The position numbers were made by a program, and so were the translations under genes. The notes under the pieces were generated by a model, which saw only the letters and a program-made list of their open reading frames with translations, was not told where the DNA came from and ran no database searches. DNA of 64,000 bases, taken from contig JAEXEN010000019.1 in assembly GCA_023400985.1 (NCBI GenBank), positions 1,954 to 65,953 of the forward strand, in the 5' to 3' direction. The DNA comes from Bacillota bacterium. Lineage in GTDB: Bacteria > Bacillota > Clostridia > Christensenellales > CAG-138. Position 1 is the first letter of the stretch, and every line of letters begins with the position of its first letter. This document shows, piece by piece, positions 6,032 to 28,630 of this stretch.

Positions 6032-6035
6032 GTTT

Positions 6036-6111: not shown

Positions 6112-6114
6112 AAT

Positions 6115-6190: not shown

Positions 6191-6193
6191 AAA

Positions 6194-6270: not shown

Positions 6271-6273
6271 ACA

Positions 6274-7281: not shown

Positions 7282-8367
7282 TCATTTGATCCGTATAAGT
7301 TCGTACTCCTGCGAGCCGAGTCCATATCCCTCAAGCGCACGGACCTGTACGAAGGGGTCCTTGCCGTGAATGCGCTCGAACAGATGGCCGGTCTCGCCAA
7401 GCTCATGCCCCTCGGGGAGCCCCGCTCTTATTAGGTCTTCGGTTTTGATAGCGTCGAGGCAGGCGCGCTCGAGCGCGACGATGTCGTTGGATGCCATGAT
7501 GCCGATGTCGGGTACGAGGGCGGGGGTGGTCATACCCCAGCAGTCGCACAAAATGGTGATCTGTGTGAGCACGTTTATAAAATAGGTATTGCCCGGCTTA
7601 AATGTATCGAGCACCGTTTTTGTGCAAAGCGCCATGCCCTGCTGGAAGGCGTCAAAATTGCTCTCGTCGAGCGCAATGGCACCCGTGGGGCAAACCTTTA
7701 CGCAGTGCTGGCAAAGGGTGCAGTCGTGGTAATTTACCCGGTACTTGCCGGCATCCGAAAACTTGTTGGCGTTGTGATTGCAGGACTTGATGCAGCGCCG
7801 GCAATGCGTGCAAAGCGTCTCGTTCCAGGTAAGACCCCCCTCGAGGCGGTGCAGCTCGCGCCGCGTGCGCGTGGTGACGCAGCCCATAGCGATGTTCTTG
7901 CACGCGCCGCCGTAACCGCACGCGCCGTGGCCCTTGACATGCGAAAAATCGATGAGCACGTCCGCGTCGTGGATGTAGCCGGCAACGTCCACATGCTCGA
8001 ACGAGCGAAGCTCTACTTTTTTGGGGTAATAGTATTTATCGAGATGGCCGCATACGTCCAGCACCGGGCAGCCGAGTATGCTTTCCACATAGCCGCGGTT
8101 TTCGGGGTGCCGTTCCTTCACGGCGTGGTCGCAAACGAAGCAGTCGCCGCCGTGCTCCTTTACAAAGCTCACCAAAATGCGCACGAACACGGGGGGGATG
8201 GTGCTGTAGGAAAGATTGTCGCCGAAATGCATTTTAATGGCTACGGACTTGCCGTTTACAACATCCGCAAGGCCGCTTTTTTCGAGCAGACGCTTGAATT
8301 TGGCGGGAAGGGTCTGGTTGGAGTCGTAGCGGGAGAAACCGAGCGGCGCAAACAATACTTGGGACAT
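7282..8367 (-). CDS. DUF362 domain protein with an inserted 2x[4Fe-4S] ferredoxin motif
   Basis: 'VAIKMHFGDN' DUF362 N-terminus; 'CTHCRRCIKSC' and 'CTLCQHCVKVCP'. ATG 8367 lies 7 nt after GAGGT (the track start at 8388 is less likely). Confidence 0.7.
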   Translation of the reverse strand: MSQVLFAPLGFSRYDSNQTLPAKFKRLLEKSGLADVVNGKSVAIKMHFGDNLSYSTIPPVFVRILVSFVKEHGGDCFVCDHAVKERHPENRGYVESILGCPVLDVCGHLDKYYYPKKVELRSFEHVDVAGYIHDADVLIDFSHVKGHGACGYGGACKNIAMGCVTTRTRRELHRLEGGLTWNETLCTHCRRCIKSCNHNANKFSDAGKYRVNYHDCTLCQHCVKVCPTGAIALDESNFDAFQQGMALCTKTVLDTFKPGNTYFINVLTQITILCDCWGMTTPALVPDIGIMASNDIVALERACLDAIKTEDLIRAGLPEGHELGETGHLFERIHGKDPFVQVRALEGYGLGSQEYELIRIK

Positions 8368-9579: not shown

Positions 9580-9835
9580 TTATCAAGGGGTGCTCCCTTG
9601 ATTACATTCCGGCTTCGGCGGCATGTATATGTCCGCCGAAGCCGGAGCCCTACGGGTCGAGGCCTACGGCCTCGCATGGGCCAAGGCCTGCGGCCTTGCG
9701 TGCCAAAACGGATGAAATCCGCAGGATTTCGTTCCTATCGCATCCGCCGCACGGGAGCGCCGCAGCGCGACAGGCGGATGTGCCGAACCCCCGAAGGGTC
9801 TCACGCAAATGGCCGCAAGGACACTTGCGTGCTGC
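9580..9835. repeat. Array of consecutive GC-rich hairpins (REP-like intergenic block)
   Basis: At least 7 successive stem-loops, e.g. ccggcttcggcgg/ccgccgaagccgg (13 bp), cgaggcc-tac-ggcctcg, caaggcc-tgc-ggccttg and catccgcc...ggcggatg. Confidence 0.6.
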
Positions 9836-9846
9836 CGGAGGCATAT

Positions 9847-11163
9847 ATGGACGTATACGAAAAGCTGAAAATCCTAACTGACGCCGCGAAATACGACGTC
9901 GCCTGCACCTCGAGCGGGGCGGACAGGACCGCGCCGCGCGACGGCATCGGGAGCGCCATGGCTGCGGGCTGCTGCCACAGCTTCGCGGGCGACGGGCGCT
10001 GCATTTCCCTTTTAAAGGTGCTCATGACCAACGCCTGTGCCTACGACTGCGCGTACTGCGTCAACCGCCGAACTCTCGATACGCCCCGCGCGACGTTCGA
10101 GCCGCGGGAGCTTGCGGAGCTTACCATCGCTTTCTACCGCCGCAACTATATCGAAGGCCTTTTTTTAAGCTCGGGCGTGCTTAAAAATCCCAACTATACC
10201 GTGGAGCGCATGTGCGAAACGTTACGCATACTGCGCGAGGAATATAAGTTTTACGGCTATATCCACGCCAAAGCCATCCCGGGGACGGACAACGCGCTGT
10301 TGACAAGGCTCGGCTATCTGGCCGACCGATTGAGCGTCAACATCGAGCTTCCCTCGCAGGAGAGCCTGCACCTTCTCGCGCCCGATAAATCCAAACAGGC
10401 GATATTAAAACCGATGGGCTTCATCAAGTCCGGCATCGAGTCGAACTCCAAGGAGCTTACACGCTATAAGCACGTGCCGAAATTCGCGTCCGCGGGGCAG
10501 AGCACGCAGATGATTGTGGGCGCGACCGCCGAGAGCGATCTAAGTATCCTCAACCTCACGGAAGGGCTCTATAAGTCCTACCGTCTCAAGCGCGTGTTCT
10601 TTTCCGCGTACATGCCGGTGGTGGAAAGCTCGCTTTTACCCACGCCGGACGTAAGACCGCCGCTACTCAGGGAGCACAGGCTCTATCAGGCGGACTGGCT
10701 CTTGCGTTTTTACGGCTTTACGGCTTCGGAAATACTCGACGCGGAGCACCCGAGCTTCAACCAATACCTCGACCCCAAATGCAACTGGGCCGTCAACCAT
10801 CCCGAGCGTTTCCCCGTGGAGGTCAACCGTGCGCCGTACGAAACGCTCCTTCGCGTGCCGGGCATCGGCGTAAGGAGCGCACAGCGCATCCTGGCCGCGC
10901 GCAAGGTTTCTACACTCGACTTTTTAGCCTTGAAGCGGCTAGGCGTGGTACTGAAGCGCGCGCAGTATTTCATCACCTGCGCCGGCAAGCTCGCGAACGG
11001 CTTCGATACCGCGCAGGACGCGCTTTTGCGCGCGCTCGTATCAGAACAGGCGAAGGGCCGCGCCGACGAGGCGCTCTTGACGCGGCCCGAACAGCTTTCG
11101 CTTTTGGAGCACCCGGCGCTTAAAAGGGAGGAGCTATTGAAATGCCTGAGCGGGGAAATGTAG
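9847..11163 (+). CDS. Putative DNA modification/repair radical SAM protein (TIGR03916-like)
   Basis: 'CAYDCAYCVNR' CxxxCxxC radical-SAM motif and a C-terminal HhH-like 'LLRVPGIGVRSAQRIL'. ATG 9847 lies 6 nt after GGAGG; the upstream track extension crosses the hairpin repeats. Confidence 0.75.
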   Translation: MDVYEKLKILTDAAKYDVACTSSGADRTAPRDGIGSAMAAGCCHSFAGDGRCISLLKVLMTNACAYDCAYCVNRRTLDTPRATFEPRELAELTIAFYRRNYIEGLFLSSGVLKNPNYTVERMCETLRILREEYKFYGYIHAKAIPGTDNALLTRLGYLADRLSVNIELPSQESLHLLAPDKSKQAILKPMGFIKSGIESNSKELTRYKHVPKFASAGQSTQMIVGATAESDLSILNLTEGLYKSYRLKRVFFSAYMPVVESSLLPTPDVRPPLLREHRLYQADWLLRFYGFTASEILDAEHPSFNQYLDPKCNWAVNHPERFPVEVNRAPYETLLRVPGIGVRSAQRILAARKVSTLDFLALKRLGVVLKRAQYFITCAGKLANGFDTAQDALLRALVSEQAKGRADEALLTRPEQLSLLEHPALKREELLKCLSGEM

Positions 11164-11969
11164 TTTACGGCTACGACGGCAGCTTCGAGGGTCTGCTTTG
11201 CTGCGTGTTCGAAAGCTATGAAAAAAAGGAGCTTCCGCTCGATGTAATATCGTTGGAGGAAGGCATGCCGCTCCTTCTGCCCGTGCGCATGGTGGAAACA
11301 GACGAGCGAAGGTCGATGCGCGTTTGGAAAGCCATCCCGCAAAAAATAGGTCCCAAGGCGCTCGAACTTGCGCACATGGGCTTTTTGACCTGTCACCCTA
11401 AAAAAGCTCTTCTTATTTTAAACTTTCTCCACCTTGGCTTTTCGAAGGGCGGCAGCGTTGTAAATATGCTTGCGGATGAAACTGTGTGCGAGCTTACAAA
11501 AGCGGTGCGCCATCTCGGCAACGAGGCGCATCTGCTGAAAGGCTTCGTGCGTTTCAGCGAAGCAAACGGCGCGCTCACAGCGCAGATCGAGCCGAAAAAC
11601 ATCGTGCTGCCACTTCTTGCGCCGCACTTTGCCGCGCGCCTGCCGCGTGAGAACTTCCTCATCCACGACAAAACGCATGCGATGGCGCTTATCCATAAGC
11701 CTGGTACAATGGGCATCGTGCCTGCGGAACAGTTTGTGATGCCGCGGCCCGGGCAGGAAGAGCTTCGTTTCCGCGCGCTTTGGCGGCTGTTTTACGATAC
11801 TATCGAGGTGGAAGGGAGGCACAACCCGAGGACCCGCATGGGCCATATGCCCAAGCGCTACTGGCGCTGTATGACGGAATTCGCCCGCTGCGACGGCATG
11901 CCAGCCGATCAAAACGCAGCGCTCAGCGGCGCTGTGCCTGCAGGGCTTCCGGAACCTCCTCTGCCCTAA
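11142..11969 (+). CDS. TIGR03915-family putative DNA repair protein (DUF4130), partner of the radical SAM protein
   Basis: 'VYGYDGSFEGLLCCVFESY' N-terminus and 'HLLKGFVRF' are typical of the family. It overlaps the upstream gene by 22 nt. Confidence 0.7.
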   Translation: MPERGNVVYGYDGSFEGLLCCVFESYEKKELPLDVISLEEGMPLLLPVRMVETDERRSMRVWKAIPQKIGPKALELAHMGFLTCHPKKALLILNFLHLGFSKGGSVVNMLADETVCELTKAVRHLGNEAHLLKGFVRFSEANGALTAQIEPKNIVLPLLAPHFAARLPRENFLIHDKTHAMALIHKPGTMGIVPAEQFVMPRPGQEELRFRALWRLFYDTIEVEGRHNPRTRMGHMPKRYWRCMTEFARCDGMPADQNAALSGAVPAGLPEPPLP

Positions 11970-12968: not shown

Positions 12969-15458
12969 ATGGGGAGCGTATTTATCATATGCCGTATGTT
13001 TGCGTCGGCTTTTTCAGGCGACTTTTTTGCGGCGTCCGTCAGCCTCTTGGATGTCGAAAGACGCGACGCCAATATTGCGGAACTCGTCATCATAGGCGTG
13101 CTGGTCGTCCTTTTGATTTTGCTTGCCCGCTATATGCGCAATCTCGGTATGTCCAAAAAGGAGCTGGAGCGGTTCAATGAGCTGCGCAAGGCTTTTTTTG
13201 ACGCCGAAGATACCGTTACCTATTTAAAAGATGAAAACATGCGGTTCGCGTTCGCAAACGCCGCCTTTGAAAAATTCTCCGGTCTGAGCGAGAAGGAGAT
13301 CACGGGGAAGATTGGCGCTGAGGTGCTGCCCGCCGCGCTTAACGACGCCGCGAGGCAGATCGAGCTCGAGGCGGTCGAGGATATGCATATCCGCTTTGGC
13401 GATGTAAGCTTTGGAAAGCGCATCTTTAGGATTACCGCGTTTCCCGTAAGCATGGCCGGCGGCAAGGCGGGCGTGGGTGTATATATACGCGATATGACGC
13501 TCGAACAAAGCCATATGAAGCTCCAGCAGCACATACTCAAGCGCAACGAGATATTGGTGGACGTGTTCAACGGGAGCTTCAAGTCAAAAGAGGAGCAGAT
13601 TGACTACATACTCTTGCAGGCGCTGGAACTGACCGAAAGCAAACACGGCTGCATCGCTTTTTACGACGAAGAAAGCGGCGGCTTCACGCAAATCACGTTG
13701 ACGCACTCCATCAACGCCGATTACGGCGAGAATCTCCCGGGGCCCGCCGTGCCTGATTTCCTCATCGATATTTTCATGGAAGCGGCCAACACGCAAAAGC
13801 CCGTGATCCAAAACGACTATCAGGCATATTTGAAAGCAAGGGGAAGGGTAAGTCCGTTTGCCCCCGCCCCCGCCCGCTTTTTGTGCGTCCCCGTTTGCAT
13901 CGACGGCAAAGTGCCCGCCGCGGTGGGCCTCGGCGACCGCGACGACCCGTATTTCGGCAACTCGGCCTATGAGGCGACGCTTTTGATGAATACCGCGTGG
14001 AACGCGTTCGAGCGGCGCGAGGCGCAGCAGAGCCTGATCTTCGAACGCAACAAATACCTGGAAACCATCCTTTCCATCGGCGACGGCGTGATGGTGGTCA
14101 ACAAAGAGGGCAGGATCGAGATGCTCAACACCGTGGCGGAAAGGCTTACCGGCTGGCCGCTCGATCAGGCGAAAGGAAGGCTGTATACGGAGGTGTTCCG
14201 GCTCACCGATGATGAATATTCCTCGTCGTGCGATTTTATCGAGCGCGTACTCGAAAGCGATTCCGCACAAACTGTACAAAACGACGCTATACTGACCTCG
14301 CGTCTGGGTGACCTTTACTTTTTAGAGAACAGCGCAGCCCCCATCCGCGGCGAGTCGGGTTCGACTGTGGGCGCGGTGATCGTGTTTCGCGACGTCACGG
14401 AAAGGCGCGCACAGCGGGGCCGCATCGAATATTTGAGCATGCACGACCCGCTTACGGGGCTTTATAACCGCCGCTATTTCGAGGAGCAGATCAACCGCTT
14501 CGACACGCCGGAAAACCTGCCGTTAAGCGTCATCATGGGCGACGTGAACGACCTCAAGCTCACCAACGATATTTTTGGTCATTCCAGCGGCGACCTTTCC
14601 ATCGTGCATTGCGCGCACGCCATCCAAAATGTGTGCCGCCCGGTCGATATTGCGGCGCGCTGGGGCGGCGACGAGTTTGTTCTGATTTTGCCGCAGACGA
14701 CCGCAGCGCAGGCGGAATTCGTATGCAGGCGTATCCATGAGGAAATGGCGTCGCGCCGCGTCGCTGCGATCCAATGCAGCATGTCGCTCGGCTTCGACGT
14801 AAAGTCAAACGCTGAGGAGGATATCTGGCGTATCCTCAACAACGCCGAGCAAAAGATGTACGCGGAAAAGACCACCAACCGCAGCCGCTTGCAATCGAGT
14901 ACGCTCGACGCTTTCGTGCAGACGCTTTATGGCAATTCCCCGCGCGAACAGGAGCATGCGGAACGGACCAGCGCCTATTGTGTGATGATCGGGCGTGTGA
15001 TGGGCCTCCCTGAGGAAGATATCAAAAAGCTCAAGGACGTGGGCGCTATGCACGACATCGGCAAGGTCGTGCTCGACGCAGACCTTTTGCGAAAGACCGG
15101 CGCCCTGACCGAATTCGAGGCCGATGAAATCAAAAAGCACCCGATCATGGGGTATCGCATCCTCAATTCCTTCGACAGCACGCTCAACCTCGCGGAGGCC
15201 GTGCTCGCGCACCACGAGCGCTACGACGGAAGCGGTTACCCCAAAGGGCTCAAGGCTACGCAGGTACCGCTTATGGCGCGCATCATTTCCGTTGCGGAAA
15301 GCTATGAGCGCATCACCCGCGATTCGGCAGGCAAGCCCGCGCGCACGGCGGCTGAGGCGATCGATATCCTTACGGAAAACGCCGGCACGCAGTTCGACCC
15401 CTATGTGACGGAGATATTCGTCCGGCTCATGCGGGAAAAGGAGCTCCCCTTACCTTAA
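12969..15458 (+). CDS. Multidomain c-di-GMP protein: TM, PAS/GAF sensor region, GGDEF, HD-GYP
   Basis: 'ARWGGDEFVLILP' (intact GGDEF), 'HDIGKVVL' and 'HHERYDGSGYPKGL' (HD-GYP). The start is uncertain (12969 or 12996). Confidence 0.8.
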   Translation: MGSVFIICRMFASAFSGDFFAASVSLLDVERRDANIAELVIIGVLVVLLILLARYMRNLGMSKKELERFNELRKAFFDAEDTVTYLKDENMRFAFANAAFEKFSGLSEKEITGKIGAEVLPAALNDAARQIELEAVEDMHIRFGDVSFGKRIFRITAFPVSMAGGKAGVGVYIRDMTLEQSHMKLQQHILKRNEILVDVFNGSFKSKEEQIDYILLQALELTESKHGCIAFYDEESGGFTQITLTHSINADYGENLPGPAVPDFLIDIFMEAANTQKPVIQNDYQAYLKARGRVSPFAPAPARFLCVPVCIDGKVPAAVGLGDRDDPYFGNSAYEATLLMNTAWNAFERREAQQSLIFERNKYLETILSIGDGVMVVNKEGRIEMLNTVAERLTGWPLDQAKGRLYTEVFRLTDDEYSSSCDFIERVLESDSAQTVQNDAILTSRLGDLYFLENSAAPIRGESGSTVGAVIVFRDVTERRAQRGRIEYLSMHDPLTGLYNRRYFEEQINRFDTPENLPLSVIMGDVNDLKLTNDIFGHSSGDLSIVHCAHAIQNVCRPVDIAARWGGDEFVLILPQTTAAQAEFVCRRIHEEMASRRVAAIQCSMSLGFDVKSNAEEDIWRILNNAEQKMYAEKTTNRSRLQSSTLDAFVQTLYGNSPREQEHAERTSAYCVMIGRVMGLPEEDIKKLKDVGAMHDIGKVVLDADLLRKTGALTEFEADEIKKHPIMGYRILNSFDSTLNLAEAVLAHHERYDGSGYPKGLKATQVPLMARIISVAESYERITRDSAGKPARTAAEAIDILTENAGTQFDPYVTEIFVRLMREKELPLP

Positions 15459-15489: not shown

Positions 15490-15771
15490 ATGAACGAAGA
15501 AGAAAAAAGGCTGTTGGAGCGGTTCCTCGATGAAGGGGGCCGCGTAAAGCAGTTCCCCTCCAAACAGACACCGCGCGACGCGGTGCTGAAGTATTTGGCG
15601 GAAAAGTTCGAGCCGGATACCGATTATAAAGAGCGCGAGGTGAACGCCATTTTGACGGAATGGCACACCTTCAGCGATTATTTCATCCTGCGCCGCTCGC
15701 TTGTGGAGGCAGGGTACCTTCACCGGCTTAAGGATGGGAGCCGGTATTGGAAAGATCCAGAAAATTCATAA
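15490..15771 (+). CDS. DUF2087 domain protein
   Basis: 'GRVKQFPSKQ...REVNAILTEWHTFSDYFILRRSLVEAGYLHR' is the typical DUF2087 pattern. Good RBS. Confidence 0.65.
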   Translation: MNEEEKRLLERFLDEGGRVKQFPSKQTPRDAVLKYLAEKFEPDTDYKEREVNAILTEWHTFSDYFILRRSLVEAGYLHRLKDGSRYWKDPENS

Positions 15772-15784
15772 AAGAATATATGCA

Positions 15785-15817
15785 AGGGCCCGTAAGCCGC
15801 GGCTTACAGGCCCTTTC
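15785..15817. terminator. Hairpin between convergent genes (weak T tract)
   Basis: agggcccgtaagcc/ggcttacaggccct, a 14-bp stem with 1 mismatch. Confidence 0.45.
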
Positions 15818-15832
15818 GCATATCCATTTATG

Positions 15833-17254
15833 CTATTTAAGCGCACTTTCCAGCATCTCCCGAAGCCGCGCGGGATCGGCCCTCCCCGCCGTGGACTTCA
15901 TCACGAGTCCCATCACGACATGCAGCGCGTCCTCCTTGCCTGCGCGGTAATCGGCCGCGGCCTTGGGGCTTTTTTCAAGCGCGTCTTTTACATGCGCTTG
16001 GAGGGTTGCCTCATCTGCAAGCATGGTCAGCCCAAGCTCCTCCTCTATCGCGGAGGGGTTGCCACCCGTTTCCCACATGCGCTTGAGCACGCGCTTGCCC
16101 GCGGTCATGCTCAGGGAACCGCCGCCGATGCGCTCGCAAAGCGCGGCAAACCGCTCTGCATGGATATGCGCGGCAAGGCTTTCCTCCTCAGAGCGAAGGC
16201 GGTTCAATTCGCCCGTGATGAGGATTGCCGCGATCTTCGGGTACGCCGTTTCTCTTACGACATTTTCAAAATATTCCGCGTCCTCACGCTTTAGCGTGAG
16301 CTGCGCGGCAAACTGCAAGCTAAGCCCGTAGCGCTCCATATAGCTGTGTTTTCGCACCTCCGGCAGCACGGGAAGCGCCGCGGCGATCTTTTCGATATCC
16401 GTGCGGCTCAGTTCGATCGCGCAAAGATCGGGGTCGGGAAAATAGCGGTAATCGTCCGCGTTTTCCTTGCGGCGCATGGTATGTGTTTTTCCCGTTGCCT
16501 GGTCAAAGCGGCGCGTCTCCTGCACGAGCGCCTCTCCTGCCTCGAGCGCTCTGATTTGGCGGGCGGCCTCGTATTCCGCCGCGCGGCGCACGGATTGGAA
16601 GGAGTTGAGGTTTTTGATCTCTGCGCGCGCGCCGAAAGTGCTTTCGCCCATGGGCCGCACGGAAAGGTTCACGTCGCAGCGCATGGAGCCTTCGTTCATC
16701 TTGCAGTCGGAAATGCCGGTATATAAAAGGATGGAGCGGAGCTTTTCCAAAAACACCGCTGCTTCCGCGGGGCTTCGTAGATCGGGCTCCGTCACGATCT
16801 CGATGAGCGGTACGCCGCAGCGATTGCAGTCGATCAGCGTGCCGTATTCGGGGTCGTGCACGAGCTTGCCCGCGTCCTCCTCTAAATGGATGCGCGTGAT
16901 GCGCACCGTTTTTTCACACGCATCGGTTTCAAGCGTCACCGAGCCATTTGCGCAGATGGGCAAATCGTACTGCGATATCTGGTAGGCCTTAGGTAGATCG
17001 GGGTACACGTAGTTTTTGCGGTCGAGCTTGGAGTACGAGGCGATGGCGCAGTTCGTGGCAAGCCCCGCGCACACGGCGTATTCGACCGCGGTTTTATTGA
17101 GCACCGGCAGCGCTCCGGGCATGCCGGTGCACACGGGGCAGATATGCGTATTAGGCGGCGCGCCGAACGCCGTGGAGCAGGAGCAGAATATCTTCGTTTG
17201 TGTTTTCAGTTCCACATGGATCTCAAGGCCGATCACGGTTTCATACTGTTTCAT
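15833..17254 (-). CDS. gatB: Asp-tRNA(Asn)/Glu-tRNA(Gln) amidotransferase subunit B
   Basis: 'YETVIGLEIHVELKTQTKIFCSC' and a C-terminal YqeY-like tail. ATG 17254 lies 6 nt after GGAGG and overlaps the gatA stop. Confidence 0.95.
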   Translation of the reverse strand: MKQYETVIGLEIHVELKTQTKIFCSCSTAFGAPPNTHICPVCTGMPGALPVLNKTAVEYAVCAGLATNCAIASYSKLDRKNYVYPDLPKAYQISQYDLPICANGSVTLETDACEKTVRITRIHLEEDAGKLVHDPEYGTLIDCNRCGVPLIEIVTEPDLRSPAEAAVFLEKLRSILLYTGISDCKMNEGSMRCDVNLSVRPMGESTFGARAEIKNLNSFQSVRRAAEYEAARQIRALEAGEALVQETRRFDQATGKTHTMRRKENADDYRYFPDPDLCAIELSRTDIEKIAAALPVLPEVRKHSYMERYGLSLQFAAQLTLKREDAEYFENVVRETAYPKIAAILITGELNRLRSEEESLAAHIHAERFAALCERIGGGSLSMTAGKRVLKRMWETGGNPSAIEEELGLTMLADEATLQAHVKDALEKSPKAAADYRAGKEDALHVVMGLVMKSTAGRADPARLREMLESALK

Positions 17255-18728
17255 GGCAACCTCCGGTTTCAAAGGGCGCTTCGGTCATGTGACAGGCGCC
17301 GTAAGCTCGTTCATAGGCCGCGCCGAGCGCGAGGAGCGTTTTTTCACCGAACGCCTTGCCGATGAGCTGCATCCCGACGGGCAGACCTTCCGCTTTGCCG
17401 CAGGGCATGGAAAGCGCCGGAAGCCCCGCGATGTTCACGGGCACGGTGCAGATGTCCCCGAGGTACATGGAAACGGGATCGCTCGTCTTTTCGCCTATTA
17501 AGTAGGCGCATGTCGGCGCGGTGGGGGTGAGCACCGCGTCAAACTCGGCAAAGACCCTGTCGAATGCGGCGGAAAGGATCGTACGCACTTGCAAAGACCT
17601 CTTGTAATATGCGTCGTAATACCCCGCAGAAAGCGCGAAAGTGCCTAAAAGTATGCGGCGCTTTACCTCCGCGCCGAAGCCCTCGCTTCGGGAACGCAGA
17701 TACAGCTCCTCGAGCGTTTCGCAGTTTTTTGCGCGGCGGCCGTAGCGCACGCCGTCGAACCGCCCAAGGTTGGAGCTTGCCTCCGCGCTCGATAGGATGT
17801 AATACGCGGGCAGCGCGCAGGAAAGCTCGGGAAGGCCGATCTCCTCCACATGCGCGCCGAGATCCTCAAAGCGATTGGCGGCGGCGAGCACACTTTCCCT
17901 CACGGTCTTCCCTACGCCCACGCCGAAAAGCTCTTTCGGGAGCGCAAGGCGCATACCCTTGACGTCGTGGCAAAGCGCCGCGGTAAAATCCGTTTCCTGC
18001 CCCGCTACGGATGTGGAGTCCTTCTCGTCGTGCGCACATAAGGTGTCGAGTACGAAGGCGCAGTCCTCCACGGTTTTGGTGAAGGGCCCTATCTGGTCGA
18101 GCGAAGACGCGAAGGCGATGAGCCCATAGCGCGAAACGCGCCCGTAGGTGGGTTTCATGCCGACCACGCCGCAAAATGCCGCAGGCTGGCGAATGGAACC
18201 GCCCGTATCGGAGCCGAGCGCGTAAGCGGCCTCGTCCGCGGCGACCGCCGCCGCTGAGCCGCCGGAGCTTCCACCCGGCACGCGATGTAGATCGCGCGGG
18301 TTTTTTGTAAGCTGAAACGCGGAATTTTCCGTACTCGAGCCCATGGCGAACTCGTCCATGTTGGTCTTGCCCAAAAACACCGCGCCCGCACCGGAAAGGA
18401 GCTTTACGGCCGTCGCGTCGTAGGGGGCGCGAAAATCCTCGAGCATTTTTGAAGCGCAGGTGGTGCGCCCGAAAGCGGTACATAGATTGTCCTTGAGAGC
18501 GGCGGGAACGCCCGCGAGCGCATTTAGAGGCTCGCCCGCTCCGCGCCGTTCGTCGATCTTCTTCGCCTGTTCCATCGCGCTTTCGGCGAATATAGAAAGG
18601 TACGCGCCGACTTCGGGCTCCACACTCTCCATGCGCCTGAGATAGCTTTGCGCCGCCTCGACGGCGCTGATCTCCTTTAGGGCGAGGCGCTTGCTCAGCT
18701 CTTTTACGCTCATGCGCGTGATGCTCAT
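17241..18728 (-). CDS. gatA: Asp-tRNA(Asn)/Glu-tRNA(Gln) amidotransferase subunit A
   Basis: Amidase signature 'GGSSGGSAAAVAA' and 'GSDTGGSIRQPA'. The ATG overlaps the upstream stop (ATGA). Confidence 0.95.
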   Translation of the reverse strand: MSITRMSVKELSKRLALKEISAVEAAQSYLRRMESVEPEVGAYLSIFAESAMEQAKKIDERRGAGEPLNALAGVPAALKDNLCTAFGRTTCASKMLEDFRAPYDATAVKLLSGAGAVFLGKTNMDEFAMGSSTENSAFQLTKNPRDLHRVPGGSSGGSAAAVAADEAAYALGSDTGGSIRQPAAFCGVVGMKPTYGRVSRYGLIAFASSLDQIGPFTKTVEDCAFVLDTLCAHDEKDSTSVAGQETDFTAALCHDVKGMRLALPKELFGVGVGKTVRESVLAAANRFEDLGAHVEEIGLPELSCALPAYYILSSAEASSNLGRFDGVRYGRRAKNCETLEELYLRSRSEGFGAEVKRRILLGTFALSAGYYDAYYKRSLQVRTILSAAFDRVFAEFDAVLTPTAPTCAYLIGEKTSDPVSMYLGDICTVPVNIAGLPALSMPCGKAEGLPVGMQLIGKAFGEKTLLALGAAYERAYGACHMTEAPFETGGCHETV

Positions 18729-20815
18729 AGCGCTTCCTCCCGTTCGATGGCGGCGGGCACCCGTATGTAACCCCCCTGGAGCTCCGGCGCGTTTTGCAAA
18801 AGCGGTGCGGGCGGAAAATCCACGGCCTTATCCTCGCGCAGCACGTTTTTTAAGGGGACCGCGTGCGCGGCGGGGACAACGCCCGAGGTATCGAAAGAAT
18901 TCAATTGTGAGGCGAAGGCGAGTATGCCATTGAGCTCCTTTTGAAGCGCCGTCTTTTCCGTATCGTCGAGGGAGAGGGAGGCAAGCTGCGCCGTTCGTGC
19001 AATATCGAAGCCCTGCGCTACGGCTTTCCTTGCGCTTGGCGTGGCGGCGACGTCGCGGCGGGCGGAGATGGAGAGCTCCCTGAGCTGCGCGTCGTCCACA
19101 AAATCCGGTGCGTCCGTCAAAAGGCATCTGGCGTCCTTGGTTTTCGGGAAGGCCGTCACGTCGCGAAGCGATTCCGCTTTGCATAAAAGCATTACGAGCC
19201 GGTCGAGGCCGAAGGCGAAACCGCCGTGCGGCGGCGTGCCGTAGCGAAAAGCCCTCACAAAAAAGCCGAAGCGCTTTTCCGCCTCCTCGTCGGAGAAGCC
19301 GAGCGCCTTAAACATCATTTGCTGCACAACGCTCGAATGGATGCGCATGCTGCCGCTGCCGAGTTCCACGCCGTTTAAAACCACGTCGTAGGCCTGCGCA
19401 CGCACGCGTGCAGGATCGCTGAAAAGATAGGGGAGATCCTCCTCATAGGGCATGGTGAACGGGTGATGCATGGCGACAAAGCGCTTTTCCTCCTCGCTAT
19501 ATTCAAATTCCGGGAAATCGGTCACGAACAAAAACGCGAATTTATTTTTGTCGCGAAGGTCGAGCATATCTGCGATCTCGAGGCGAAGCCCTCCGAGCGT
19601 CCGGCGCACCGTGGGGAGCTTATCGGCGCAGAACAAAAGAAAGTCGCCGTTTCCCATGTCCGTGCGCGTTAAGATGGCATCCCACGCCTCTTCCTTCATA
19701 AACTTCCGGAGAATGGAGTTTACGCTGCCGTCCTCGCGCAGCATGATCCACGCCATACCCTTTGCGCCGAAATGAAGCGCGCGCTCGGTGAGGAGCTCGA
19801 TCTCCGTTTTGGTAAAGCGCGCGCCGCCTTTCACATTGAGCGCGCGCACGGAGCCGCCCTGCCGCGTTACGCTTTCAAACACCGAAAAGCCGCTGCTTTT
19901 TGCGATGTCTGTCACGTCTACAATGGGCATTTCAAAGCGGATGTCGGGCTTGTCGCTGCCATAGAGATCCATGGCCTGATGCCATGTAAGGCGGGGGAAC
20001 GGCTCTGTTATGTTTATATCCATGACGGTTTCCATGAGGTTCTTGAACAGCTTTTCGAGTTGGACGAGTATATCCTCCTGCGTCACGAAGGAAAGCTCCA
20101 TATCGAGCTGGGTGAATTCCGGCTGGCGGTCGGCGCGCAGGTCCTCGTCGCGAAAGCAGCGTGCCACCTGATAGTAGCGGTCGAGCCCACCCACCATCAA
20201 AAGCTGCTTAAAGATCTGCGGGCTTTGCGGGAGCGCGTAAAATTCGCCCGGATGCACGCGGCTCGGCACAAGGTAATCCCGCGCGCCCTCGGGCGTGCTC
20301 TTGGTGAGGATGGGCGTTTCCACGTCCACGAACCCCCCCTCGTCCAGGTAATCCCGCGCGGCCTTCACCACCTTATGCCGGAAGCGCAGCGCTTCCTGCA
20401 TCTGCGTGCGCCGTAGATCCAAAAAGCGGTATTCCATGCGGAGGTCCTCGCGTATGCGCGAACCGTCCTCCAAAGAAAAGGGGAGAGGATCGGCCTCCGA
20501 AAGAATGTCAAACGCCTCCGCCCTCAGTTCGATCGCGCCGGTTTTGAGTTTTTCGTTGTAGGTTTCCTCGTCGCGAAGCTGCAAGATCCCCTCCGTGCGC
20601 ACGACCGATTCAAGCCTTACGCTCTCCGCCGCCGTAAACGCGCTTTCACTGAGCTTCGCCCGGCTGCATACCACCTGCAGTACCCCCGTGCAGTCCCGAA
20701 TGTCCAAAAAGATCACGCCGCCCATGTCGCGTTTGTGGAAGACCCATCCGCTCACGATAAACCGCTCTCCCACGCGGTCTTTTGTAATAAGCCCCCCGTG
20801 CTCCGTCCGGTACAT
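18725..20815 (-). CDS. aspS: Aspartyl-tRNA synthetase fused in frame to GatC
   Basis: Bacterial-type AspRS from 'MYRTEHGG...' to 'DAQLRELSI', an ~20-aa linker, then a 94-aa GatC ('AQLASLSLDDTEKTALQKELNGILAFASQLNSFDT...NVLREDK...GGYIRVP'). There is no stop or in-frame ATG/GTG/TTG at the junction. ATG 20815 lies 8 nt after GGAGG. Confidence 0.85.
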   Translation of the reverse strand: MYRTEHGGLITKDRVGERFIVSGWVFHKRDMGGVIFLDIRDCTGVLQVVCSRAKLSESAFTAAESVRLESVVRTEGILQLRDEETYNEKLKTGAIELRAEAFDILSEADPLPFSLEDGSRIREDLRMEYRFLDLRRTQMQEALRFRHKVVKAARDYLDEGGFVDVETPILTKSTPEGARDYLVPSRVHPGEFYALPQSPQIFKQLLMVGGLDRYYQVARCFRDEDLRADRQPEFTQLDMELSFVTQEDILVQLEKLFKNLMETVMDINITEPFPRLTWHQAMDLYGSDKPDIRFEMPIVDVTDIAKSSGFSVFESVTRQGGSVRALNVKGGARFTKTEIELLTERALHFGAKGMAWIMLREDGSVNSILRKFMKEEAWDAILTRTDMGNGDFLLFCADKLPTVRRTLGGLRLEIADMLDLRDKNKFAFLFVTDFPEFEYSEEEKRFVAMHHPFTMPYEEDLPYLFSDPARVRAQAYDVVLNGVELGSGSMRIHSSVVQQMMFKALGFSDEEAEKRFGFFVRAFRYGTPPHGGFAFGLDRLVMLLCKAESLRDVTAFPKTKDARCLLTDAPDFVDDAQLRELSISARRDVAATPSARKAVAQGFDIARTAQLASLSLDDTEKTALQKELNGILAFASQLNSFDTSGVVPAAHAVPLKNVLREDKAVDFPPAPLLQNAPELQGGYIRVPAAIEREEAL

Positions 20816-20829
20816 AGTATTTTCCTCCC

Positions 20830-21150
20830 TGAAAAATGAATAAATAAAAACAGCCTCGGTCCCTAATTTGGGACGCAAGGCTGCTGCCTTTCGCGGTGCC
20901 ACCCAATGTAGCGTAAAAACGCTCACTCTTTGACGACGTGCGATGTTGCATCGCAGATCGCTTACGGCTATAACGCGCCGTGCGCGTCCGAGTCTACCGG
21001 CCTTGAAAAACAAGGCTTTCGGTCGGAGGCTCCGAGCTGTTCTTCCCCTGCGCCGCCGTACCGCGCTCTCACCTTACCGCGGCTCTCTTGGACTTTGCAC
21101 GCAGGCTACTCGTCTCATCATCGCCTGAAAGAAAATACAAAATATATTAT
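20830..21150 (-). promoter_or_regulatory. T-box riboswitch leader (candidate specifier AAC = Asn)
   Basis: On the minus strand: GA/K-turn 'gcgatgatgag', 'gagtag' AGTA box, distal 'ggtgagag', specifier-loop 'ggaaGAACAg' (AAC at 21041-21039 followed by A), T-box core 'attgggtggcaccgcgaaagg' (20907-20888), and a terminator hairpin at 20883-20851 plus a U-run. Confidence 0.8.
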
Positions 21151-21154
21151 GCGT

Positions 21155-21183
21155 ATTATATGCGTGGAATTGCGCGTTGTCAA
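21155..21183 (-). promoter_or_regulatory. Consensus sigma-A promoter of the T-box/aspS-gatCAB operon
   Basis: Minus strand TTGACA (21183-21178), 17 nt, TATAAT (21160-21155). Confidence 0.7.
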
Positions 21184-21190
21184 CGATTTT

Positions 21191-23572
21191 TTATTGCCGC
21201 AGCCGGAAAGCGCCGACCTGATTTTTGAGCATCTCCGCCTGACCGCTAAACTCTTCGCTGGTGGCGGCCTGCTCCTCCGCCGTGGCGGAGTTGGTTTGCA
21301 CCACCTGCGACATCTGCTCGATGCCCTTGTTGACCTGCGCGATGGCCGTCGCCTGCTTACCGGAGGCGTTAGCGATGTCGCTGACGAGCTTTGCGGAGGC
21401 TTCCACCACCTCCAGGATGCTCTTAAGCTCTTCGGCGGTCTTGTCGGCGATCCTCGTGCCCGCCTCGGCTTTTTCCGCCGAGCTTTCGATGAGCGCCTCC
21501 GTTTCCTTCGCGGCTTTCGCGCTTCTTGCGGCGAGGTTCCTGACTTCCTCGGCCACCACGCCGAAGCCCTTGCCGTGTATGCCCGCACGCACGGCTTCGA
21601 CCGCCGCGTTGAGCGCGAGTATGTTGGTCTGAAACGCGATATCGTCGATCACCTTGATGATCTTGGAGATGTTTTCCGAGGCGACGTTGATCTCCGTCAT
21701 AGCGCTTTGGAGCTTCGCCATGTGTTCGCTGCCCTTGAGCGCGCGCTCCTTTGCCGCCATGCTCAACTCGCTCGCCTTGTTCGCGCCGACCGCATTTTCG
21801 CGCGTCTGCCCAGCGATGGTGCCGATGGAGGCGGTGAGCTCATCGATGGAAGCCGCCTGCTCAGCCGCTCCCTGCGAAATGGCCTGGCTGCCGCCCGATA
21901 CCTGTATAGTGCCTGCGCTCACCTGATCGGCGGCGGCGCGAATTTCCGAAAGCACCGAGCTCATCGATTCCGCGATAGTGTTGACGGACGTCTTGAGCTT
22001 TAAGAACTCGCCTAAGTATTCGCTGTCGATGGATACGCTGAAATCGCCCTCCGCCATACCGTCCAGGGCTTCGATCAGTTCCCCGATGTAGCTGCGGAGC
22101 GCTCCGATGGTATCGTTGAGCGCGTGCTTGATGGTGGCGTGGTCGCCTTTATAATCGCCCTCCATGGCAATGTCAAGCCTGCCTTGCGAAAGCTCGACAA
22201 GGACATTGCTCGCTTCCTCCACAGGCTCGATCACGGCGTCGAGAGTGCCGTTGATGCCTTCGAGAATTTTCTTGTATGCGCCCTGATGCTTTTCGGGGTC
22301 GGCGCGGTAGGCGAGATCGCCGCTAAGCGCCGCATGGGTGAGCGCGGTCGTATCGGAAACAAGTTCGTTGAGGGTGCTGCTCACGCCGTAAATGGCGTTG
22401 AAGATCGTGCCGAATTCGTTTTTCTGCTTCACGTTTTCTGTGATGTTCAGTTCGCCTTTTTTGAGGTTTTCCGTAACCTTTACGATCTTTTGCACAGGGG
22501 ATACCATGCGGTGAATGCCAAAAAGAGATGCGGCGCATACGATTGCGAGGCCGACAACGATCATGATGCGAAGGCTGTTCATCATCGAATCCCGCTCGGC
22601 CATCACTTCGGAGGCGTCCACCACGAAAGCGCTGGAAAAGGCTTTTGCCGCGCCTTCCGGCGTGATAGGGAGATATAGAGCATAGGCCGGCTTTCCCGTA
22701 ATGGCGCTGACTCCGTCAAATTGGAGTACCTGGCGGTTTTTTACCGCGGTAAGCACGGTGCCTGACGCTTGATCCGTAGAGACGTCGCTACCGTAAACCG
22801 TGCCCACGCGTTCGGAAAGCGCGGAGTGGGAAAGCATGGTGCCGCTGCTGGTGAGCGTGTAAGAATAGGCCTTTAAATAGCTCCCGAGGTTTGATGCAAG
22901 CGCATTGATCGGCTCCGCGGGAAGGTCAAGCCTTACCGCGCCGCACCGCTTGCGGTTTGCGTCAAGGAAAGAACAGCTTAAGGTGATCAGCTTTATGGAA
23001 CTGCCGTCTGGCAGGCTGTAATCGTAAGGGTCCGTGATCTGAATTTTTTTGGAGCGCAGCGTTGACGTATAGAAATCCGCGGCGCTGTACTCGGCATAGT
23101 CGTTTTTGTTCTCCGTAACCGAATCGTTTCCGCTGCGACGGATGCTTAGGGATAGCCCGGCTTCGCCGGCCGAAGAAGCGGCGGCGGGTTCCCACGCTAT
23201 AGAAACGCCGAAAATCCGGTCGTCCTCCATATAGCTTTCGAGCGTGCTGAATGAAAGACTCTCAAGCTCTGCGGCTGTCGGCTGCATTTGGGTGATTTCG
23301 CCTGCGCGCTGTGCCAGAGATTTTGTGAAAACGGAGAAAAGGCTCAGGTATTTCTCTACCGCGTCGGCGTTTTCTTTGGCTATCAACCGCATTTTTTCCG
23401 TTGCGTTGGCCGTCATGATCGTGGAAAGGGAATTCTGAACATAGAAGTAGACGCCCGAAAACGCAAGAGAAAATGTTGCAAGCACAACGGCCGTCACTTT
23501 GAAAGTAAGCTTTCTCCAGAGCAGCAGCCATGTCTGTTTTACCTTAAACCATACCCGTTTTATCCTTGTCAT
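21191..23572 (-). CDS. Methyl-accepting chemotaxis protein, double-Cache sensor (paralog 1)
   Basis: N-terminal TM, periplasmic Cache-like region, TM2, HAMP, then '[35 protein letters not shown]'. ATG 23572 is preferred over 23614. Confidence 0.85.
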
Positions 23573-23692
23573 AAAAACACGCTCCCGAACGAATTGCAAG
23601 ATGTATACATTCATATCATCGCATTTTTTAAAGGCAAAACCGAGCAGGCTTGGGGAAAGAATGCGTTAAGCTTGCGTAAAACCATATTTTGT

Positions 23693-23769: not shown

Positions 23770-26160
23770 TTACTTAATGATAAACCTGCCGACCTGGTTT
23801 TTGAGCATTTCGGCCTGACCCGAGAGTTCTTCGCTGGTGGCGGCCTGTTCCTCCGCCGTGGCGGAGTTGGTCTGTACCACCTGTGACATCTGTTCGATGC
23901 CCTTGTTTACCTGCGAAATGGCCGTCGCCTGTTCGTTGGAGGCGTTGGCGATGTCGCTCACGAGCTCTGCGGAGGTTTCTACCGCCTCCACGATGCTCTT
24001 GAGCTCTTCGGCAGTCTTGTCGGCGATCCTCGTGCCGGCCTCGGTCTTTTGCGCCGAGCCCTCGATGAGCGCTGCCGTTTCCTTGGCGGCCTTCGCGCTT
24101 CTTGCGGCGAGGTTCCTGACCTCCTCGGCTACCACGCCGAAGCCCTTGCCGTGCACGCCGGCGCGCGCCGCTTCTACAGCCGCGTTGAGGGCGAGTATGT
24201 TCGTCTGGAACGCGATATCGTCGATCACCTTGATGATCTTCGATATGCTTTCGGAAGCAACATTAATCTCCGTCATGGCGCCTTGGAGCTTTTCCATGCG
24301 GTCGCTGCCCTTGAGCGCGCGCTCTTTCGCCGTAACGCTCAACTCGCTCGCTTTGTTTGCGCCGATCGCGTTTTCGCGCGTCTGTTCGGCGATGGCGCCG
24401 ATGGAGGCGGTAAGCTCTTCAATGGAGGCAGCCTGCTCGGTAGCGCCCTGCGAAATGGCTTGGCTGCCGCCGGATACCTGTATGGTGCCCGCGCTTACCT
24501 GATCGGCGGCGGCGCGAATTTCCGAAAGCACAGAGCTCATCGATTCCGCGATGGTATTGACGGAGGTCTTGAGCTTTAAGAACTCGCCCAAGTATTCCCT
24601 GTCGATGGAGACGCCAAAATCGCCGTCCGCCATGCGGTGCAGCGCCTCGCTCAGCTCGCTGATATAGCTGCGGAGCGCTTCGATGGTATCGTTGAGCGCG
24701 TGCTTGATGATGGCGTGGTCGCCCATGTAGTGCCCCTGCACGCTTGCGTCGAGGTTGCCGCGCGAAAGTTCCACAAGCACGCCGCTTGCCTCGTTCACGG
24801 GCTCGATCACCGCGTCGAGCGTGTTGTTGACGCCCGCGACGATTTCCCTAAACGCACCCTGATGCTTTTCGGGATCGGCGCGGTAGGAGAGGTTGCCGCT
24901 TAGCGCTGCCTGCGTGAGCGCGTTGGTATCGCCTACAAGCTCTTTTAGAGTATTGCGAACGCCGCAGATGGCATTGAAGATCATGCCGAATTCATTTTTC
25001 GACTTCACGGTCTCGCTGATGTTCAACTCGCCCCGTTCAAGTTCCCCCGCGACCTTCGCGATCTTTTTCGCGGGCGATACCAAACGGTAAATATTCAAAA
25101 ACGTGATGACGCACATCACAACTGCGCCGATGATGATAAAAAGAAGCAAGCTATGCATCATCGAGTCGCGCTCGGCCATCACTTCGGAAATGTCTACGAC
25201 GAAGGCGCTCGAATAGGTTTGGTCGAGGCCTTGCGGCGTGATGGGGCTGTAGATCATATAGGCGGTCTTGCCGGAAAGCGCGCTGACGCCCGATGCCGTA
25301 GAAAGTGCCGTCCCGGATTTCACCGCTTCCAAAACGGAAGCGGGGTCATAGTCGGCTTCATCGCTTCCAAAGAGGGTGCCGACGCGTTCGCCTATCGCGG
25401 AATGCGACAAAACGGTACCGGAGTTGGTGAGCGTGTAGTAGTAGTCCGTCTCATACCCGCCATCGGCAAAGGCGAGTTCGCTGATCGTACCCGCGTCGAT
25501 ATCGAAATTGACAACGCCTACGATCTTGCCGTTGGAATCTTTAATGGGGTAGCTCACCGATACGATCCAATTCGTGTCGCCGTTTGCGAGCGAGTCGCTG
25601 TAGGGCTCCGTCAAATGCGCTTTACCGGTTTCGTAGGAAACTTCGTAGTATTCGAGCTCGTTGTATTCGGCATAGTTGTTTTGGGTTTCGTTATAAAGCC
25701 TATCTCCCTCTGCACGGCATACGTAAACTGAAAGGCCGTCGGGTGTGTTGCCCGCTACGATGTTGGGTTCCCATGCGACATGCGCTCCGAATACGCGTTC
25801 ATCATCGAGATAGTTCTTGAGCGAATTGATAATGGTGATCTCGACTGCGCTGGCGTATGTATTCCCGTAGGCCAGCTGTCCCATTTGTATGGAGAGCGAT
25901 CTCGCGTACGACAGCATGGTGGAAAAATACTCTGATAGGACGTGCGCGTTCTGTGCCGCGAGGAGCTCTACTTTTTCTTCGGCAGTCTGCGACATAGCGG
26001 TGGAGAGGGAGCTGTTCATGGTTGTGTAGATGCCTGCCATGACAAGCAGCAACACCACCAGTACGGAGGCGGTCACAACAAAAGTGAGCCTGTTCCACAG
26101 GCGCGATCCAGACGGCATTTTTTTTACGGCGCGCGGTTCTGACAGACGTTGTTTTTTCAT
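23770..26160 (-). CDS. Methyl-accepting chemotaxis protein, double-Cache sensor (paralog 2)
   Basis: Same architecture as paralog 1; '[37 protein letters not shown]'. Confidence 0.85.
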
Positions 26161-26242: not shown

Positions 26243-28630
26243 TTATTGCCGCAATTGAAAAGCGCCGACTTTGGTTTTGAGCATCTCCGCCTGGCCGCTG
26301 AGCTCCTCGCTCGTGGCGGCCTGCTCTTCAGCCGTGGCGGAATTGGTCTGCACCACCTGCGACATTTGCTCGATGCCCTTGTCGACCTGCGCGATGGCCG
26401 TGGCCTGTTCGTTGGAGGCGGCGGCTATATCGCTCACGAGCTTTGCGGAAGCTTCCACCGCCTCCAGTATGCCCGCGAGCCCATCCGCGGTCTTGTTGGC
26501 GATCCTCGTGCCTGTTTCGGCCTTCTCCACCGAGCTTTCGATGAGCGCGGCCGTTTTCTTCGCGGCGTCGGCGCTCTTACCCGCGAGGTTCCTGACTTCC
26601 TCGGCGACCACGCCGAAGCCCTTGCCGTGTGCGCCGGCGCGTGCGGCCTCGACCGCCGCGTTGAGGGCAAGTATGTTCGTCTGGAACGCGATATCGTCGA
26701 TCACCTTGATGATCTTCGATATGCTTTCGGAGGCAACGTTAATCTCTGCCATGGCAGCTTGGAGTTTTGCCATGCGTTCGCTGCCCTTGAGCGCGCGCTC
26801 CCGCGCCGTAACGCTAAGCTCGCTCGCTTTGTTCGCGCCGCTTGCGTTTTCGCGCGTCTGTTCGGCGATGGCGCCAATGGAGGCGGTAAGCTCCTCGATG
26901 GAAGCTGCCTGCTCGGTAGCTCCCTGCGAAATGGCCTGGCTGCCGCCCGATACCTGTATGGTGCCCGCGCTCACCTGATCGGCGGCGGCACGAATTTCCG
27001 AAAGCACCGAGCTCATCGATTCCGCGATGGTATTGACGGAGGCTTTGAGCTTGAGAAAGTCGCCCTTATATTCGCTGCCGATGGCGACGCTGAAGTCACC
27101 CTCCGCCATGCTGCCCAAGGCTTCGCTCAGCTCGCCGATGTAGCCGCGAAGGGCAAGTATCGTATCGTTAAGCGAATGCTTGATGATGTTGTGATCGCCC
27201 TTATAGTGCCCCTGCACGCTTGCATCAAGGTTGCCGCGGGAGAGCTCCACAAGGACATTGCTCGCTTCATTCACAGGCTCGATCACCGCGTCGAGCGTGC
27301 TGTTGACGCCCAAGACGATCTCTTTAAACGCGCCCTGATGTTTTTCCGGGTCCGCGCGGTAGGAAAGGTTGCCGCTAAGCGCTGCCTGCGTGAGCGCGGT
27401 CGTATCGGAAACAAGTTCTTTTAACGTATCGCGCACGCCGCAGATGGCGTCGAAGATCATGCCAAATTCGTTTTTCGATTTCACGGTTTCGCTGATGTCC
27501 AGCTCGCCCCGTGCAAGTCCCCCCGCGACCTTCGCTACTTTTTTTGCGGGGGATACCAGGCGGTAGATATTCAAAAACGTGGCCGCATACATGAGGAGCA
27601 AGCCGATGACCATGATAATGCCCAAATTGCTCAGCATTGCGTCGCGCTCCGCCATGACTTCGGAAACATCTACGGCAAAAGCGCTTGAAAACGCGCGGTC
27701 GATGCCCTCGACGGCAATGGGACGGTAGAGAATGTACGCGTTGTTGCCCGTTATCGCGCTTATGCCGTCGATCTCGGCGGTCTCGCCGCTATTTGCCGCG
27801 GCCAGCACGGCGGCGGCTTTTGCATCCGTCCGGGTGTTGTCGCCATAGCTTGTTCCGAGCCGGTCGTTCAGCTTGGAATGGGAGAGGAAGACGCCGTTGT
27901 TGGTAAGGGTATAGGCGTATGCGCTGGAATAACCGCCGTAATTGAACTCCAGTTCGCTAATCTTGCTTGCGATAACGTCGAAGCAAGCCACGCCCACGAA
28001 CCTGTTTGTGCTGTTGTAGACGGGATAACTCACGGTCATGAGCCGTACAATGGTGCCATCGGTAAGCGTATAATTGTAGGGATTGGTGAGATGCGGTTTT
28101 TCGGTATCGCGTACGACGGTATAATACTCCGCAGCGCCGTACACGTCGTAGTCGTTTTTTGCCTCGAAGAGGATCTCGTCGCCGTCGCGAAACGCGTAAT
28201 AGGAAAGGCCGTTGGGCGTAAGGGTGAAGGACTTAAGCGGCTCCCATGCCATGTAGGCGCCGAATAGGCGATCGTCGTCCAAATATTCCCTTAAGGTGTT
28301 TTCGGCAAAGCTCTGAAAGCGCGACTCGACCAGGCCCGAGTCGGTGAGCTCTCCCATCTGGATGGCGAGCGATCTCCCGTTGGCGGAAACCGCATTGAGA
28401 TACGCTTCCACGGCGTTCGCGTTTTGCGCCGCGAGCAGCCCCACCTGCTTTTCGGCGCTTGCGGACATTGCGTTCGAGAGCGAGGAATTCATGTAAACAT
28501 AAATGCCCGCCATGACCAATATGAGGAAAACGAGCACCATGGCGGTCACGGCAAAGGTGAGCCTGTTCCATACATGCGATCTCTTCGCACGTTTTTCCCC
28601 GGTATGCGGTTTCGGCGGACGCTTTTTCAT
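26243..28630 (-). CDS. Methyl-accepting chemotaxis protein, double-Cache sensor (paralog 3)
   Basis: Same architecture as paralog 1; '[37 protein letters not shown]'. Confidence 0.85.

Follow-up and report, generated by a model that had tools for sequence, protein, structure and literature searches.

A conserved AspRS-GatC fusion at the head of a gatA-gatB operon in Clostridia: a candidate covalently tethered transamidosome

Whether the channelling of a dangerous mischarged tRNA is the main role of transamidosomes is still debated, since the complexes described so far need tRNA or are short-lived. In the amidotransferase GatCAB, the GatC subunit serves as a stabilising scaffold (PMC8406222). 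The mycobacterial aspartyl-tRNA synthetase (AspRS) and GatCAB associate only via tRNA, and the stability of the transamidosome tunes fidelity (PMC8406222). Here we describe a gene that encodes AspRS and GatC as one polypeptide and is followed directly by gatA and gatB. It lies in a 64,000-nucleotide stretch of DNA from a Bacillota bacterium (contig JAEXEN010000019.1 of assembly GCA_023400985.1, positions 1,954 to 65,953), hereafter called the window, whose own numbering is used throughout. The operon is preceded by a T-box leader with an asparagine specifier codon, and the same fused frame recurs across many families of Clostridia.

A preliminary description of the window knew of no report of such an architecture, and on this point it has to be corrected. 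The NCBIfam model NF009460/PRK12820, named [quoted passage not shown], already catalogues the same domain order, and the fusion is widespread in Clostridia. The window protein aligns with this model end to end (residues 8-689 on model positions 27-721 of 723). Its score is 620 bits where the cutoff stands at 1379, and the ten other fusions tested reach 240-650 bits. Since these values are far below the cutoff, the family lies outside that equivalog clade, and the model was built on another lineage. Full-text literature searches, with key subscription papers out of reach, returned no paper on a natural AspRS-GatC fusion and just an artificial aspS-gatCAB construct. We regard the fusion as a further, uncurated member of a catalogued architecture in a well-understood pathway, and one that has apparently never been studied.

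The fused reading frame and its conservation

A single open frame occupies positions 18725 to 21013 of the minus strand. From the ATG at 20815 it comprises 696 codons and a stop (18725-20815), and encodes a polypeptide of about 78 kDa, as estimated from its length. The parts of the gene and of the operon that it heads are as follows.

20824-20829, minus strand: GGGAGG, the Shine-Dalgarno sequence that serves the fusion gene, 8 nt ahead of its ATG at 20815
19067-20815, minus strand: AspRS module, residues 1-583, with the OB anticodon-binding domain, the class II catalytic core and the GAD insertion
19010-19066, minus strand: flexible linker, residues 584-602, SARRDVAATPSARKAVAQG
18728-19009, minus strand: GatC module, residues 603-696, with the stop codon at 18725-18727
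17241-18728, minus strand: gatA, 495 aa, with an Amidase domain (PF01425, 507 bits); its start overlaps the stop codon of the fusion (ATGA)
15833-17254, minus strand: gatB, 473 aa when counted from the ATG at 17254, containing GatB_N (408 bits) and GatB_Yqey (111 bits) domains

All four Pfam domains of the fusion exceed their cutoffs: OB (PF01336) at residues 21-102, the class II core (PF00152) at 123-560 with 411 bits, GAD (PF02938) at 313-406, and GatC (PF02686) at 616-686 with 66 bits (cutoff 23). The match to the NCBIfam model aspS_bact (TIGR00459) covers residues 3-585 with 741 bits (cutoff 374), and NF001750, likewise a model of bacterial-type AspRS, gives 805 bits (cutoff 443). Compared with known structures, the AspRS module scores 590 bits to the Thermus thermophilus AspRS and 545 bits to that of Pseudomonas aeruginosa (4WJ3); among the PDB chains that match it, none runs past the AspRS C-terminus. 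Beyond this point, residues 604-691 match positions 5-93 of the 93-position gatC model TIGR00135 with 70-74 bits (cutoff 47). In a 50%-identity representative library, the C-terminal domain shows 40-50% identity to thousands of free-standing GatC proteins of about 95 aa. On sequence grounds, this domain is confirmed as an ordinary GatC.

The window sequence has no stop codon at the junction between the two modules. Near the junction, ATG, GTG or TTG occurs in frame only at codons 542, 553, 566, 573, 638 and 658, which leaves none between codons 574 and 637. The preliminary description had read the frame as a complete bacterial-type AspRS, a linker of about 20 residues and a full-length GatC of 94 aa, with neither a stop nor a usable start codon where they meet. 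The family matches above curated cutoffs, the linker of 19 residues and the near full-length GatC match bear it out. It had likewise placed the start of gatA on the stop of the fusion and let gatB overlap gatA, as is indeed the case: the first junction reads ...CTATGAGC, that is ATGA, and the second overlap is 14 nt from the ATG at 17254, or 32 nt from the TTG at 17272 that the open-reading-frame finder had chosen as the start. This ATG has GGAGG 5 nt ahead of it and is likely to be the gatB start, in preference to the TTG.

A homologue search covered 5.8 billion proteins, and its 120 best matches range in identity from 100% to 59%. Every one of the 120 carries the same four domains, in 685-771 aa. 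Species-representative genomes were then scanned with the junction region, as a sample rather than a census, and about 23 of the 598 AspRS tails listed are fused. Among these matches, at least 22 Clostridia loci have one uninterrupted AspRS-linker-GatC frame; they include Oscillospiraceae, Feifaniaceae, Mageeibacillus, Ca. Limiplasma, Ca. Fimadaptatus, Clostridiaceae and others. In all 22, gatA lies directly 3' of the fusion, and gatB comes next wherever the contig is long enough. The cultured Ligaoa zhengdingensis has a fused orthologue of 61% identity, which UniProt names automatically “Multifunctional fusion protein”. The 50%-identity library proved unusable for counting fusions, because the full-length ones are hidden in clusters with other representatives. 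Two kinds of apparent fusion were discarded from the scan: a Caldimonas locus (L051), selected by coverage, has a frame that stops right after AspRS, and four unfused enzymes with His at residue 31 merely have long upstream open frames in high-GC genomes.

Since the frame is kept in 120 homologues and in at least 22 genomes, it is neither a product of chance nor a sequencing error. The source is a metagenome-assembled genome (MAG), in which a stop codon could have been lost or a frameshift introduced. Against this stand more than 120 independent protein clusters with the same frame, drawn from several databases, together with the representative genomes and a cultured isolate, and we consider the chance of such an artefact negligible. 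The preliminary description had warned of a stop or a frameshift in close relatives; their junctions are intact. The fusion is real, and it is widespread in gut and rumen Clostridia. Outside this class, an Anaerolineales MAG (Chloroflexota, CAZCPK010000231.1, 5'-truncated; L071, 897-1481) encodes AspRS and a GatC-like domain in frame, followed by gatA and gatB. Its linker is longer, acidic and unrelated to that of the Clostridia, and the sequence suggests an independent fusion event.

Among the 120 homologues, the mean pairwise identity is 71% in AspRS, 51% in GatC and 17% in the linker. Two invariant residues, L581 and A609, enclose a spacer of 23-35 residues (27 of them in the window protein), in which Ala, Lys, Gly, Glu, Ser and Arg abound. 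In an AlphaFold2 monomer model built from 68 sequences, the confidence measure pLDDT is mostly above 90 in the AspRS body and below 50 in linker residues 586-601. Within GatC, the model has moderate confidence in the helices at 605-611 and 618-639 and low confidence in the C-terminal half, the pattern to be expected if this subunit needs GatA and GatB in order to fold. With its low identity, its variable length and its low predicted confidence, the linker behaves like a tether.

Such a linker also raises the question of whether one protein or two are at work in the cell. If the linker were cleaved, or if GatC had an internal start of its own, the mature products would be an ordinary AspRS and an ordinary GatC. 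The disordered linker is exposed in the model and would be accessible to proteases, and in one relative (L013) a GGAGG and, after it, a GTG occur close to the start of GatC. Yet in the window the stretch from codon 574 to codon 637 offers no in-frame start at all. Among the relatives, neither an internal start nor a Shine-Dalgarno sequence is conserved in position, and six loci have none in the scanned region; nor is a conserved cleavage motif visible in the poorly conserved linker. We therefore hold separate products to be very unlikely, and the fusion protein presumably remains uncleaved.

In the protein names given by NCBI, the fusion goes unseen. The identical protein at NCBI is called “aspartate--tRNA ligase [Clostridia bacterium]”, and its relatives are likewise plain “aspartate--tRNA ligase”. 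Because of these names, the genomes of the clade would appear to be without gatC, and when pathways are reconstructed for the clade that bears the fusion, GatCAB may be taken for incomplete by mistake.

The promoter and the asparagine T-box leader

Upstream of the fusion gene are a promoter and a long structured leader, with the following elements.

21155-21183, minus strand: sigma-70-type promoter, TTGACA-17 nt-TATAAT, with 12 of 12 consensus matches
20839-21130, minus strand: T-box riboswitch leader, made up of Stem I, in which the specifier loop lies, then the T-box sequence, then a terminator hairpin and its U-run
21039-21041, minus strand: specifier codon AAC (Asn), within the loop GAAGAACA (21045-21038)

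The promoter is the sole 12/12 TTGACA-17-TATAAT site on the minus strand within 15500-21400. The leader matches the full Rfam model RF00230 (1-219) at 20866-21130, with 88.1 bits (gathering score 93) and E = 7.8e-20. It has the structural hallmarks of a T-box: a specifier loop, a T-box sequence whose bulge is UGGN and, before the gene, a competing terminator and its U-run. The T-box sequence UGGGUGGCACCGCGA is found at 20905-20891, the arms of the terminator at 20883-20870 and 20863-20851, and the U-run at 20850-20839. The 3' side of this loop is GAA-G-AAC-A, after which comes GCUC of the closing stem, and the AAC is directly 5' of the conserved purine.

Related leaders precede most of the fused genes. 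Among the 20 loci that include the 5' end, 16 have a T-box, as does Ligaoa, with scores of 63-128 bits; nine orthologous leaders exceed the gathering score with 96-128 bits, and that of Ligaoa reaches 100.4 bits. The specifier position holds AAC in 18 of 18 T-box leaders, the window included, while the preceding bases vary (GAAG, GAAAG, GAACG, GAAA). In the window and in eight of the nine structurally aligned leaders, a Glu codon GAA overlaps the AAC as GAAC. Because AAC is the specifier in all 18, the fused enzyme is tied to the synthesis of Asn-tRNA(Asn), and the leader would be expected to respond to uncharged tRNA(Asn). At one fused locus where no T-box was detected (L005), a GAAAAACU motif is retained at about the usual distance from an AGAGA box.

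Among the loci examined, only one such operon is adjoined by a tRNA-Asn gene: in L010, a tRNA-Asn (GTT) lies at 8247-8322 on the minus strand, about 540 nt downstream of gatB and on the opposite strand. This tRNA has U1-A72 and G73, and U1-A72 is a feature that has been tracked for bacteria using GatCAB (PMC4206432). In the window the T-box bulge is UGGC, which fits a G73 discriminator; in L010 it is UGGU, which would form a G-U wobble with G73.

The synthetase module and the tRNAs it may serve

The residue that follows the RRD motif in the AspRS module, residue 31 (codon 20723-20725), is Met in 68 of 68 aligned sequences of the family and in 20 of 20 loci (among L002-L022). At this place the sequence is RRD-H-GGVIF in the solved enzymes of the Asp/Asn type (P. 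aeruginosa 4WJ3; mycobacterial 5W25 and 4RMF) and RRD-L-GGLIF in the discriminating T. thermophilus AspRS1. Of the unfused enzymes in the same scan, those of Burkholderiales, Helicobacter and deltaproteobacteria have His, the Clostridia enzymes L040, L042, L045 and L047 have Leu, and one other has Lys. Suzuki, in 2015, is said to have linked the residue after RRD to the reading of tRNA base 36. The L1 loop of the anticodon-binding domain is not diagnostic for discrimination. Since the fused enzymes have Met31 where the unfused ones have His or Leu, the fused AspRS is, by its sequence, a distinct paralogue and not the ordinary clostridial AspRS, and Met31 offers a clean marker for it. That it charges tRNA(Asn) is suggested by its context, i.e. 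the fusion to GatC, the operon with gatA and gatB, and the asparagine T-box.

The fused enzyme could nevertheless be the sole AspRS of the cell: a non-discriminating synthetase for general housekeeping, from which Asp-tRNA(Asp) comes as well, rather than a second copy set aside for asparagine. The large open reading frames scanned in the 64-kb window include no asnS, glnS or second aspS, and many bacteria serve both tRNAs with a single non-discriminating AspRS (PMC4206432). However, a housekeeping AspRS is not what the leaders point to, as their specifier is Asn in 18 of 18 cases and not the Asp codon GAC. The related Clostridia with an unfused, Leu31-type AspRS also speak against it, and fit a housekeeping copy accompanied by a specialised paralogue, a situation like that of C. 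acetobutylicum, which has three AspRS (PMC4206432). We consider a sole AspRS possible, though we do not expect it.

The fusion might also serve stoichiometry only. In this case the aspS stop codon was lost and the fusion was kept for a 1:1 ratio of AspRS to GatC, with no kinetic or fidelity gain over the non-covalent transamidosome. Clostridia already have aspS-gatCAB operons with separate genes, and the architecture recurs in the Anaerolineales locus and in the lineage of the NF009460 seed, which suggests that fusion is an easy event. The unconserved linker of variable length is also as expected if the connection alone matters. On the other hand, translational coupling through ATGA secures co-expression without any fusion, and the fusion has been kept down to 59% identity across many Clostridia families. 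The invariant, family-specific Met31 points in turn to a specialised enzyme rather than to a neutral accident. On balance, a role in stoichiometry alone seems unlikely to us.

The surroundings of the operon were also surveyed. There is no tRNA-Asn gene anywhere in the window; a cluster of five tRNA genes at 5958-6349 on the minus strand encodes Val-Asp-Phe-Gly-Cys with spacers of 3-4 nt, and its tRNA-Asp has the anticodon GTC. Directly upstream of the operon, three tandem paralogues of methyl-accepting chemotaxis proteins of about 800 aa lie on the minus strand (21191-23614, 23770-26160 and 26243-28630). To judge by their translations, the C-terminal halves of the first two differ very little; the third contains MCPsignal, HAMP and Cache-type sensor domains. 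On the plus strand, 12969-15458 encodes an 829-aa protein with a GGDEF motif (RWGGDEFVLILP) and an HD-GYP-type motif, HHERYDGSGYP, which from these motifs is probably a signalling protein with cyclic di-GMP cyclase/phosphodiesterase functions. Further away, at 9598-11163 on the plus strand, is a radical SAM protein that matches TIGR03916 with 649 bits, a family associated with partners resembling uracil-DNA glycosylase, and the overlapping open reading frame at 11142-11969 may be its glycosylase-like partner.

A proposed tethered transamidosome and the known systems

We consider it probable that the operon encodes a covalently tethered transamidosome regulated by tRNA(Asn). Uncharged tRNA(Asn) would pair with the AAC specifier and stabilise the antiterminator, so that the operon is transcribed. 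AspRS-GatC, GatA and GatB would then be made by coupled translation. The AspRS module would dimerise like any class II AspRS, while the tethered GatC, held on its disordered spacer of 23-35 residues, would wrap the GatA-GatB interface in the manner of a free GatC. An AspRS dimer would thus bear two GatC scaffolds and hence two GatAB, and the expected particle is (AspRS-GatC)2 GatA2 GatB2. After the synthetase puts Asp on tRNA(Asn), the attached amidotransferase would turn Asp-tRNA(Asn) into Asn-tRNA(Asn). Such a complex would hold together without tRNA or an accessory protein. It is plausible that AspRS is in this way hard-wired to the amidotransferase scaffold for the synthesis of Asn-tRNA(Asn), an idea already present in the preliminary description and strengthened by the asparagine-specifier T-box, which lies upstream of the operon and is conserved in relatives. 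The tether may improve channelling or fidelity.

Several points weigh against this tethered transamidosome. The His after RRD that marks the Asp/Asn-type enzymes is not present in the fusion, and acceptance of tRNA(Asn) is not a property that can be read from the sequence. At four of the 20 fused loci (L005, L015, L017 and L019), no T-box was found upstream (Rfam E <= 1e-3); the asparagine T-box is common among fused loci, yet not universal. An AsnB-type glutamine-hydrolysing asparagine synthase is encoded about 10 kb away, at 30275-32116 on the plus strand (TIGR01536, 494 bits, cutoff 267), and no T-box precedes it at the Rfam gathering score. The genome may therefore have two asparagine routes, the direct one if an asparaginyl-tRNA synthetase (AsnRS) is present, or the AsnB-type enzyme may serve some other amidation. 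Finally, if GatCAB also makes Gln-tRNA(Gln), a lasting tether to AspRS has no obvious advantage.

A more radical proposal, which we think doubtful, is that the Met31 AspRS is dedicated to tRNA(Asn) only. Wired to GatCAB, it would act as an “AsnRS” with two active sites that never releases Asp-tRNA(Asn), and the leader might also sense tRNA(Glu) through the overlapping GAA/AAC codons, a property reported for C. acetobutylicum. If this were true, the tRNA(Asn)-only particle would be an obligate, tRNA-independent transamidosome, and would stand in nature midway between the indirect pathway and a genuine AsnRS. Whatever the range of tRNAs served, a natural covalent AspRS-GatC, including that of the cultured Ligaoa zhengdingensis, provides a clean test case for channelling in transamidosomes.

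The tethered transamidosome proposed here can be set beside several known systems. The non-covalent Asn-transamidosomes of P. aeruginosa (4WJ3), T. thermophilus (3KFU) and Mycobacterium tuberculosis involve the same enzymes, with a GAD-bearing AspRS and the same presumed two-step chemistry. Here, by contrast, AspRS and GatC are one polypeptide, whose assembly should need neither an adaptor nor the tRNA on which the mycobacterial complex depends, and residue 31 is Met and not His. In C. acetobutylicum, aspS and gatC are presumably separate genes, unlike the fused genes of the window. In the work of Saad et al. (2012 and 2013), the latter as summarised in PMC4052509, its transamidation operon is reported to be controlled by a T-box with overlapping Asn and Glu codons, so that the likeness extends to a clostridial host, to a T-box on an operon for AspRS and the amidotransferase, and to an Asn codon overlapped by a Glu codon. 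In Helicobacter pylori, a stable, tRNA-independent complex of AspRS and GatCAB is obtained with a separate adaptor, Hp0100 (PMC8406222); in the fusion, a covalent tether would take its place. Deinococcus radiodurans GlnRS, with its C-terminal YqeY/GatB-like domain, is likewise a synthetase carrying a domain derived from the amidotransferase. It differs in the synthetase and in the Gat subunit concerned, and its appended domain is reported to aid tRNA binding, with no recruitment of GatAB (PMC1865053). In a GatC-GatA fusion of Mycobacterium smegmatis, GatC is again covalently joined to a partner of the same pathway; this is reportedly a mutant selected in the laboratory, with the C-terminus of GatC joined to GatA and with more mistranslation (PMC7541841). 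The fusion of the window is unlike it, as the N-terminus of GatC is joined to AspRS, and as this is a conserved natural form.

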